From IMG/VR virus record IMGVR_UViG_2651869755_000001: a stretch of 24,323 nucleotides of DNA. One strand, written 5' to 3'. This DNA comes from a virus. Taxonomy: Duplodnaviria > Heunggongvirae > Uroviricota > Caudoviricetes. Shown piece after piece: positions 20,355 to 20,666 of the stretch; within the stretch, counting starts at the first letter, position 1, and each line of letters starts with the position of its first letter. A program made the translations under genes and the position numbers. Below the pieces are notes generated by a model that ran no database searches, was not told where the DNA came from, and worked only from the letters and a program-made list of their open reading frames with translations.

Positions 20355-20369
20355 ACCTAGCCCTAACTG

Positions 20370-20398
20370 TTGAAGTTATTATAAACTGGAAGCATATT
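20370..20398 (+). promoter_or_regulatory. candidate sigma70 promoter for the plus-strand small gene
   Basis: TTGAAG (20370-20375), 17-nt spacer, CATATT (20393-20398), about 28 nt upstream of the ATG. Weak matches, read by eye. Confidence 0.3.
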
Positions 20399-20426
20399 AC
20401 TTATGTTTATTTGAAAAGGAGATTTT

Positions 20427-20633
20427 ATGACGCCCGCAGTTAGTACCCGATTATTAGAACTGACTCGTGATTTAAATAACGATATTAGAATCGCTGCTAT
20501 CTATGCTTTAGGAGAAGGAGGTAATGCTACGCTATCAGCCGTTAACCGTCTTCTTGAGTTAACTCGTGATTCAAATAACGACATTAGAATTGCAGCAACC
20601 AAAGCTCTCGGACGTATTTTTCGGAGCAAATAA
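20427..20633 (+). CDS. small protein of two HEAT-like repeats (68 aa)
   Basis: ATG at 20427 with AAGGAG 5 nt upstream. Repeat RLLELTRDxNNDIRIAAxxALG occurs twice. The two DNA repeat units differ mostly at synonymous positions (about 10 synonymous against 3 non-synonymous changes). About 37% GC. Confidence 0.6.
   Translation: MTPAVSTRLLELTRDLNNDIRIAAIYALGEGGNATLSAVNRLLELTRDSNNDIRIAATKALGRIFRSK
20448..20612 (+). repeat. two 66-nt direct repeat units (20448-20513 and 20547-20612) encoding the HEAT-like repeats
   Basis: Codon-by-codon hand alignment of the two units. Confidence 0.6.
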
Positions 20634-20635
20634 GT

Positions 20636-20663
20636 AAAAATGCCGCTCTCTCCACGAGCGGCA
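20636..20663 (-). terminator. hairpin plus T-tract immediately after terS
   Basis: 8-bp stem tgccgctc / gagcggca with a 7-nt loop (20641-20663). On the minus strand it is followed by TTTTT and starts 3 nt after the terS stop. Lies between the convergent terS and HEAT-like genes. Confidence 0.5.
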
Positions 20664-20666
20664 TAC

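Follow-up and report, generated by a model that had tools for sequence, protein, structure and literature searches.

A two-repeat HEAT gene set against the late operon at a prophage terS–terL junction, and its relatives on conjugative plasmids

The gene between terS and terL

We examined a small gene, here called micro-HEAT, that lies between the terminase genes terS and terL in a tailed-phage sequence (Caudoviricetes; IMG/VR record IMGVR_UViG_2651869755_000001). The whole stretch analysed, 24,323 nucleotides read 5′ to 3′ on one strand, is called the window below. The open reading frame (ORF) occupies positions 20427–20633 on the plus strand, stop codon included, and encodes a 68-residue protein, MTPAVSTRLLELTRDLNNDIRIAAIYALGEGGNATLSAVNRLLELTRDSNNDIRIAATKALGRIFRSK, with two HEAT/alphaRep-like repeats and four predicted helices. 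The protein is identical to RefSeq WP_024246483.1, 'HEAT repeat domain-containing protein', so the existence of the gene, already annotated generically, is not new. What is added here is its division into three branches, its strict placement on the opposite strand, a conserved promoter-like motif, independent insertions, the swapping of alleles, and a copy of phage origin in over 1,200 plasmids, R64 among them. The gene is real, selected, mobile and foreign in composition.

Both flanking genes are on the minus strand. To the left lies terL (18732–20354), encoding a large terminase of 540 residues that is annotated 'TerL protein' or 'terminase large subunit', and to the right terS (20667–21239), encoding a small terminase of 190 residues (Terminase_2, Pfam PF03592, E = 2.8e-31). 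The 540-residue TerL matched no Pfam or NCBIfam model; its relatives at the other loci (534–543 residues, 58–99% identical among loci) likewise match no Pfam-A or NCBIfam model despite their large-terminase annotation. The gap that separates the start of terL (20354) from the stop of terS (20667) measures 312 bp and has a G+C content of 39.4%, as against 50.7% for the whole window; the ORF itself has 40.6% and the spacer upstream of it 29.2%. The G+C content at third codon positions (GC3) is 0.26 in the ORF and 0.57 in terL. An earlier note, made by reading this DNA alone, had put the gap at 313 bp and its G+C content at about 37%; the gap and its low G+C are real, although both figures need this small correction.

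Every plus-strand ORF of at least 100 codons in the window overlaps a longer minus-strand gene, and in the matching stretch of Escherichia coli CAU16175 RefSeq annotates micro-HEAT as the sole plus-strand coding sequence. It is the only credible plus-strand gene in the window, as had been claimed. The only other candidate, a 76-codon ORF with a GTG start (22866–23096, +) between the Q gene and the lysis genes, is unannotated in RefSeq and is probably spurious; its counterpart in phage vB_EcoM-606R2 (L001:5281–5487), which lies on the plus strand between the genes for holin and Q, is entered in GenBank as a 'hypothetical protein' of 68 residues.

The same terS/terL junction was found in 316 of 5,426 complete E. 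coli genomes. In nearly all of them, and in phage vB_EcoM-606R2, the site is empty and reads TAA-GT-ATG, with the terS stop and the terL start 2 nt apart, in agreement with the view that the two genes are usually adjacent; the four sequenced phages of the vB_EcoM-606R2 group have the junction without the insert. In this survey of related prophages, which the earlier note had proposed, an insert identical (100%) to that of the window was present in only two of the 316 genomes, and thus in two of the 5,426, while five further E. coli genomes carried another allele at the same junction.

In an alignment with the empty site, the insert is 310 bp long and is bounded by an imperfect 15-bp direct repeat, CGGCATAC(C/T)TAGCCC, whose copies at 20349–20363 and 20659–20673 are spaced 310 bp apart. 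The left copy, CGGCATACCTAGCCC, holds the terL start codon (CAT, 20352–20354) and a pseudo terS stop, and the right copy, CGGCATACTTAGCCC, holds the true terS stop (TTA, 20667–20669) and a pseudo terL start. The 15-bp repeat is an exact copy of the terS-stop/terL-start junction; therefore both genes are intact and terL keeps its native initiation region. The insert also leaves a 26-codon pseudo-start (ATGCCGCTC..., Met-Pro-Leu as in terL) where translational coupling formerly led into terL.

The allele in the five further genomes has different boundaries and no flanking repeat, so that the junction has been hit independently, at least twice. No 15-bp flanking duplication was found at eight other loci of the same branch of the family (branch 1, described below), and we conclude that the duplication is specific to the insertion event seen in the window. 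Mobility of the integron-cassette or transposon type was considered and ruled out, since there is no recombinase, the hairpin at the end of the insert is too short for attC and the other alleles lack the repeat. In being an extra gene between genes that are adjacent in related phages, and in having a base composition unlike that of the surrounding phage genes, micro-HEAT has the features of a moron. For genome annotation, it follows that a gap between terS and terL is not always a mis-call.

In the 72-nt spacer upstream of the gene, the sole columns invariant among the nine branch-1 loci are TTG, A.A.T and GGAG, the remainder having diverged. The first lies in a −35-like hexamer, TTGAAG (20370–20375, +; TTG invariant in nine of nine loci). 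The second lies in a −10-like hexamer, CATATT, 17 nt further on (20393–20398, +), and the spacing between the two is constant in all nine. The third, which is invariant across loci, belongs to the Shine–Dalgarno sequence AAGGAG (20416–20421, +), 5 nt before the ATG, where the earlier note had seen a consensus site.

Downstream of the stop codon is a 9-bp GC-rich hairpin, ATGCCGCTC-TCTCCAC-GAGCGGCAT (20640–20664); after it, the minus strand has TTTTTACTTAT and the plus strand a poor T tract. The plus-strand RNA is predicted to fold with −18 kcal/mol (z = −5.7), the hairpin is matched by a terminator scan on the minus strand, and hairpins of differing sequence occupy the same place 3′ of the stop codon in most homologous loci. 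Together with the promoter-like motif and the Shine–Dalgarno sequence, it suggests that the gene would be expressed from the resident prophage. The earlier note had expected the transcript to run antisense into terS; this is not a given, because a stable hairpin stands between the ORF and terS, and such read-through is not conserved across the family. Read on the minus strand, positions 20640–20674 form a textbook intrinsic terminator, with a 9-bp GC-rich stem and TTTTTACTTAT, directly after terS and before terL. From established lambdoid biology, Q-modified polymerase should pass through it.

Repeats, predicted fold and selection on the protein

The two repeat units are STRLLELTRDLNNDIRIAAIYALGEG (residues 6–31; 20442–20519, +), whose AIYALGE stretch is the same, or almost the same, throughout the family, and VNRLLELTRDSNNDIRIAATKALGRI (residues 39–64; 20541–20618, +). 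Their 17-residue cores, RLLELTRDLNNDIRIAA (residues 8–24) and RLLELTRDSNNDIRIAA (residues 41–57), differ at 13 nucleotides, and 12 of these 13 changes are synonymous. Over the full 26-residue units there are 12.3 synonymous differences, a proportion per synonymous site (pS) of 0.64, and 14.7 non-synonymous differences, a proportion per non-synonymous site (pN) of 0.25. The statement that the repeats differ mainly at synonymous sites thus holds per site and within the core, but not for the raw counts over the whole unit. The excess of pS over pN indicates that the duplication is old and has been preserved at the protein level. Because the synonymous sites are saturated between the repeats, there has been no recent gene conversion between them, and concerted evolution, which we considered, was rejected on the same ground. 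The repeats do show parallel changes: RD.NN occurs in both repeats of branch 1 where KK.D. occurs in both repeats of branch 2, and 'DI' appears in each of the two repeats of P0007. Such changes point to a structural constraint common to both repeats, or to a partner with pseudo-symmetry, rather than to recent gene conversion.

The protein passes the Pfam cut-offs for HEAT_2 (PF13646; 38.9 bits against 27.7), HEAT (PF02985; 37.2 against 23.5) and HEAT_EZ (28.1 against 27). HEAT_PBS (PF03130), at 14.7 bits, falls under its cut-off of 20.9, so that of the earlier description as 'PBS-lyase/HEAT-like' the two HEAT repeats stand and 'PBS-lyase' is a resemblance only. It shares its broad repeat class with the E. 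coli YibA/PRK09687 'putative lyase' (NCBIfam NF007244, E = 2e-4) but scores 20.7 bits against a cut-off of 275 and is not a member; YibA-type proteins are about 285 residues long with many repeats, unlike the 68-residue product described here.

AlphaFold2, given the family alignment, modelled the protein with a mean per-residue confidence (pLDDT) of 90.8 and helices at residues 3–12, 18–30, 36–45 and 51–67. The model has the stacked helix-turn-helix units of about 30–40 residues that characterize HEAT proteins, and it bears out the earlier idea of a two-repeat helical protein. The protein lacks cysteines as well as any hydrophobic segment, and its isoelectric point is 10.2; most relatives are basic too, and a GR..R tail is conserved.

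The top matches in the PDB, by sequence as well as by fold, are alphaRep binders (profile E down to 1.6e-20; TM-score 0.80–0.85; root-mean-square deviation 1.2–1.4 Å), which were designed from natural HEAT-like repeats. Fold and sequence searches of the PDB yielded designed repeat proteins only, with no natural small analogue of known function, and a search of the BFVD viral structures yielded nothing at E ≤ 0.001. The protein shares with alphaRep the unit of helix A, turn and helix B and the signature ..VR..AA.ALG.IG. AlphaRep proteins, however, are engineered, have N- and C-terminal caps and usually contain at least four repeats of 31 residues, whereas this protein is natural and consists of two uncapped repeats of 33 residues in which the positions that are hypervariable on the alphaRep surface are constant. 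When the protein is aligned with alphaRep and the positions randomized there are traced, the equivalents of the binding surface include Y26, E30 and R63, which vary little or not at all within the family. Their constancy suggests a single conserved partner.

A word-indexed protein search returned 12 proteins of 68–72 residues, 50–97% identical and all from Enterobacterales. Scans of IMG/VR and of GTDB genomes, with exact-protein look-ups, brought the collection to 45 loci with 21 distinct DNA versions; the homologues have 66–72 residues, and their hosts include Serratia, Pantoea, Enterobacter and Citrobacter prophages. The family is shared with prophages of at least five genera. We group these proteins as the mobile genetic element (MGE) micro-HEAT family (R64 WP_000062603-like), a grouping defined in this analysis by a length of 66–72 residues, two repeats and AAIYALGE(G/S) in repeat 1, all of which the window protein has. 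It also carries the C-terminal signature of the family, A.(K/R/S/A)(A/S)(L/F/I/T)GR..R. A hidden Markov model built from the two closer branches detects the branch typified by plasmid R64 at E = 1e-14 to 1e-19. An exhaustive profile search was of no use for delimiting the family, because its 10,770 matches, nearly all longer than 500 residues among the 150 listed, swamped the small proteins with long multi-repeat HEAT proteins.

Synonymous sites are saturated between branches. Where the synonymous distance dS is finite, the ratio of non-synonymous to synonymous change (dN/dS) is 0.04–0.48, with a median of 0.22. Invariant residues are coded by up to six different codons, and no other reading frame stays open across the family. 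The start, the stop, the Shine–Dalgarno sequence and the length of 66–72 residues are all kept in the face of this divergence. We conclude from the dN/dS of about 0.2, the scrambled codons at invariant residues and the closure of all other frames that micro-HEAT is a protein-coding gene under purifying selection. The selection on the protein that the earlier note had argued from the repeats is thereby seen between homologues, where the database search and dN/dS comparison it proposed had pointed; that note had also reckoned with the ORF being lost and its repeats decayed in relatives, and the homologues keep both.

These results leave almost no room for the idea that the gene has no function, being a chance ORF or a decaying piece of a long HEAT-repeat protein brought in by illegitimate recombination. 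Its repeat type is indeed abundant in long multi-repeat proteins, as the 10,770 matches attest, P0111 has closely similar RLLELTHD...VR units, and the window allele is rare, in two of 5,426 complete E. coli genomes. Nevertheless, the conserved length, start, stop and Shine–Dalgarno sequence and a dN/dS well below 1 effectively refute it, and 1,215 plasmids carry the gene (below), about as many as carry an R64-like ExcA.

A reading in which the functional product is the RNA, or the act of transcription, is scarcely more attractive, and we consider it very improbable. On this view the cassette would be an antisense or terminator element that damps or insulates terS, terL or the lysis genes in the lysogen, and the ORF would have no part in it. 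In its favour, the cassette and the late operon converge, the hairpin read in the late-operon direction resembles a terminator (ATGCCGCTC...GAGCGGCAT then TTTTTACTTAT) and the insertion separates the terS stop from the terL start. Selection, however, acts strongly at the amino-acid level while codons are scrambled, a strong Shine–Dalgarno sequence is conserved everywhere, and the sequence opposite the gene varies with the branch, being the 3′ end of terS, the lysis genes or excA. Rfam gave no match, apart from a single microRNA hit at chance level when the gap was searched.

Linkage to terS and the copies on IncI1 plasmids

At all 45 located loci micro-HEAT is opposite in strand to the late operon, and in nearly all prophage and viral loci examined it adjoins terS or a fragment of terS. 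In branch 1, which comprises the window, Serratia, Pantoea and others, it lies between terS and a terL of about 540 codons, and the terS product is either a Terminase_2 protein of 164, 190 or 318–340 residues or a DUF2280 protein. In branch 2 (Enterobacter) it directly precedes the terS start, with the lysis cassette on its other side, and in branch 3 (Citrobacter and others) the position is the same.

The Enterobacter and Citrobacter branches therefore occupy the slot that bor, a classical lambdoid moron encoding a lipoprotein, has in phage lambda, between the lysis and terminase genes. Like micro-HEAT, bor is a small gene opposite to the late operon, atypical in composition and patchily present in related phages; it is autonomous, with its own promoter, as micro-HEAT may be too. 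Unlike the Bor lipoprotein, the micro-HEAT product is predicted to be a cytoplasmic repeat protein, and the copy in the window splits a terS–terL junction that is normally 2 nt long.

A protein search seeded with a branch-3 member found that the most abundant relatives lie on contigs of 74–87 kb that encode TraW, TraX, TraY, ExcA, Hok and TrbA. With tblastn the family was present in 1,215 of 72,556 PLSDB plasmids, 1,201 of the 1,215 being conjugative. In the IncI1 prototype R64 (NC_005014) the gene, encoding WP_000062603.1, is at 76702–76911, convergent with excA and adjoining the type I toxin genes dqlB and pnd. In the IncI1 copies, too, it is opposite in strand to its neighbours. By comparison with the 1,215 plasmids that carry the micro-HEAT family, 1,178 encode an ExcA with 60% or more identity to the R64 protein; as a rough guide, then, nearly every plasmid of the R64 type would have the gene. 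In E. coli and Salmonella, IncI1 plasmids are major carriers of resistance genes, those for extended-spectrum β-lactamases (ESBL) among them.

The protein encoded by R64 shows 44% identity to that of the window and 75% to a family member from a Citrobacter prophage. Like the window protein it has two repeats, with AAIYALGEG and AAIKALGRI.R motifs, and at 69 residues it is about as long; its locus resembles that of the window in its G+C content of 39%, its 3′ hairpin and its orientation opposite to the surrounding operon. It differs in that it belongs to a conjugative plasmid and not to a prophage, with excA on one side and type I toxin genes (dqlB, pnd) on the other; its first helix has diverged (ANTFLFEMM in place of TRLLELTRD), and it is close to universal among plasmids of its group, in contrast to the rare window allele. 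WP_000062603.1 is annotated only as a 'HEAT repeat domain-containing protein', and we found no paper on the R64 gene.

Upstream of the plasmid gene is the sequence ATGGCACTCACTTACAAACAGGAG (MALTYKQE), which matches the phage terS start ATGGCACTCACCGACAAACAAGAG (MALTDKQE) at 21 of 24 positions and then decays to a stop. On an R64-type IncI plasmid this terS fossil lies at L054:5926–5975, with MALTYKQE and a stop after 16 codons. Branch-2 and branch-3 loci that have no working terS nearby likewise keep a decayed terS 5′ end, corresponding to residues 1–82 at L012 (5738–5983), 5–23 at L016 (4858–4914) and 3–35 at L040 (391–492). Because a decayed terS 5′ end lies upstream of the plasmid gene, the plasmid copy appears to descend from a terS-adjacent phage cassette; a terS fragment travelling with the HEAT gene implies transfer from phage to plasmid. 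The fossil beside the plasmid copies offers a clean, datable example of such gene flow. The retained fragment may hold a promoter, an operator or other cis-regulatory sequence.

Two contigs from IMG/VR show another kind of neighbourhood: at L040:756–2398, and also on L041, the HEAT gene is followed by a gene for a DUF4411 protein and then by one for a Peptidase_M78 (IrrE/ImmA-like) protein. The pair resembles toxin–antitoxin or defence modules, and the HEAT gene can thus sit in a cluster of accessory genes.

The excA-side slot of plasmid pESBL (81319–81528) is listed as containing, in place of the HEAT gene, a Hha/YmoA-like ORF of 69 residues on the excA strand, and this ORF scored as important for plasmid maintenance in transposon sequencing (PMC4288162, Table 2). 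Two differing small helical proteins of about 69 residues can accordingly be found in one slot (the pESBL ORF by that listing; compare L055:1703–1912). The trbA–traY interval has been called 'a very variable region' (PMC8004404).

The frequent company of terS raises the question of a role in DNA packaging. The protein might act on TerS or TerL by binding or regulation, keep rival phages from packaging their DNA, or oppose satellites that take over TerS. It speaks for such a role that the gene nearly always adjoins terS or a terS fragment, either at the terS–terL junction or upstream of terS, in three branches that have diverged deeply and with terS genes of several families. Against it, the TerL and TerS of the window are 99% identical to those of locus L028, while the HEAT proteins of the two are only 62% identical; conversely, L021 and L028 have one HEAT allele with unrelated terS families. 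HEAT alleles have thus been exchanged independently of the terminase. The gene is also absent from nearly all close E. coli prophages and from the four sequenced phages that have the junction, and 1,215 plasmids have the family without a terminase. Since the plasmid copies retain a decayed terS 5′ end, the linkage is explained by descent or by cis elements and not by protein function. A terminase-specific function was rejected on the evidence of the terminase-free plasmids and of the alleles swapped between near-identical terminases. It is unlikely that the target of the protein is the terminase of its own element, and we regard a packaging role as improbable. The presence of the family in more than 1,200 IncI1-type conjugative plasmids makes micro-HEAT an accessory gene of mobile elements, not part of the packaging machinery.

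The product as a candidate binding protein

We think it rather probable, though far from settled, that the insert is a self-contained moron cassette whose product binds a factor of the host or of a competing element to the benefit of the resident element. The cassette of 310 bp would comprise its own σ70-type promoter (TTGAAG-17-CATATT), a strong ribosome-binding site, the ORF of 68 codons and the 3′ hairpin. It lies opposite to the Q-dependent late operon; its transcription from the resident prophage would not depend on that of the late genes, and its promoter would probably be occluded once late transcription begins. The product is predicted to be a soluble, mostly basic, four-helix protein of two HEAT/alphaRep-like repeats, for which binding a partner would be the only plausible activity. 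Its target may be a host factor or a factor of a rival mobile element, and the outcome could be exclusion, defence, anti-defence or modulation of the host. We place the partner in this class because phages and plasmids share the family, because alleles swap independently of the terminase and because almost all related prophages do without the gene.

Several observations weigh against this reading. The family occurs on hundreds of bacterial contigs and in 1,215 plasmids but in none of 50,697 sequenced phage isolates: tblastn with four family members against these genomes gave no match, for three of the four even at E ≤ 1. Carriage by viable phages therefore rests on prophage and IMG/VR predictions. 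The absence may reflect sampling bias, or the gene may be enriched in elements that are seldom isolated as virions. As to the promoter and terminator of its own that a moron would have, the invariant TTG, A.A.T and GGAG and the hairpin speak for them, but the promoter-like motif matches the consensus at only 8 of 12 positions and was not called by a simple promoter scan, and the hairpin has a poor T tract on the strand of the gene and a better one on that of the late operon. In the branches upstream of terS and in the plasmid branch a TTGTCn motif is conserved inside the terS 5′ end or its fossil, with no convincing −10 element. Finally, no known defence, anti-defence or phage family was matched in PHROGs, PADLOC or NCBIfam, no dedicated anti-defence search having been made.

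One particular outcome, favoured by the earlier note, is anti-defence, with the small binder inhibiting a host immune system and so protecting the phage or plasmid that carries it. A small protein present on two kinds of mobile element, with strongly diverged alleles inside near-identical flanks as at arms-race loci, would suit such a role. Similar repeats are also part of the sensor regions in some candidate defence proteins (PADLOC HEAT-ARM_XIII, E = 3.4e-5; HEAT_CxxC_PD-DEXK, E = 0.0055), which would allow the protein to act as a mimic or decoy. These PADLOC matches, however, are at the level of the repeat only: in PADLOC-DB 2.0 about 55 residues match, within proteins of 288–1972 positions (E = 3.4e-5 to 0.02), and the protein does not qualify as a member of a defence system. 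In PHROGs nothing was significant, the best match being a family of unknown function at E = 0.0078. The gene lies outside the early phage region and outside the IncI1 leading region, near excA, pnd and trbA in the latter case, and its neighbours are terS and terL, lysis genes or excA, with no adjacent helix-turn-helix (aca-like) regulator. A dN/dS of about 0.2 gives no sign of positive selection. Taken as a specific claim, anti-defence seems to us unlikely.

A broader proposal, which we would call doubtful as it stands, makes the family the natural counterpart of the alphaRep binders. Temperate phages and IncI1 plasmids of Enterobacterales would have in common a minimal two-repeat HEAT module that uses Y26, E30 and R63 to bind a single conserved host factor or immune factor, and it would form a new class of proteins for anti-defence, exclusion or host modulation across elements; the module would have moved from phage to plasmid together with a control region in the terS 5′ fragment.

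Whatever its function, the family deserves attention, for the gene is present in 1,215 plasmids and is common to prophages of at least five genera without any study that we could find: a literature search on HEAT repeats with prophage, moron, anti-defence or IncI1, and on the RefSeq accession, found nothing on this gene. A 68-residue protein amounting to hardly more than a binding surface lends itself to simple tests, and these could bring to light a host or immune factor that phages and plasmids alike must control.

With regard to the prophage itself, the window matches that of CAU16175 up to position 24076, and 24077–24323 is outside the homology. This last part contains a minus-strand ORF (24092–24313) whose translation resembles, in our judgement, the C-terminal part of InsB of the insertion sequence (IS) IS1. 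In CAU16175 the tail genes are interrupted by IS3 and IS30 insertions that are absent from the window, and the window copy of the prophage therefore looks more intact than the CAU16175 copy.

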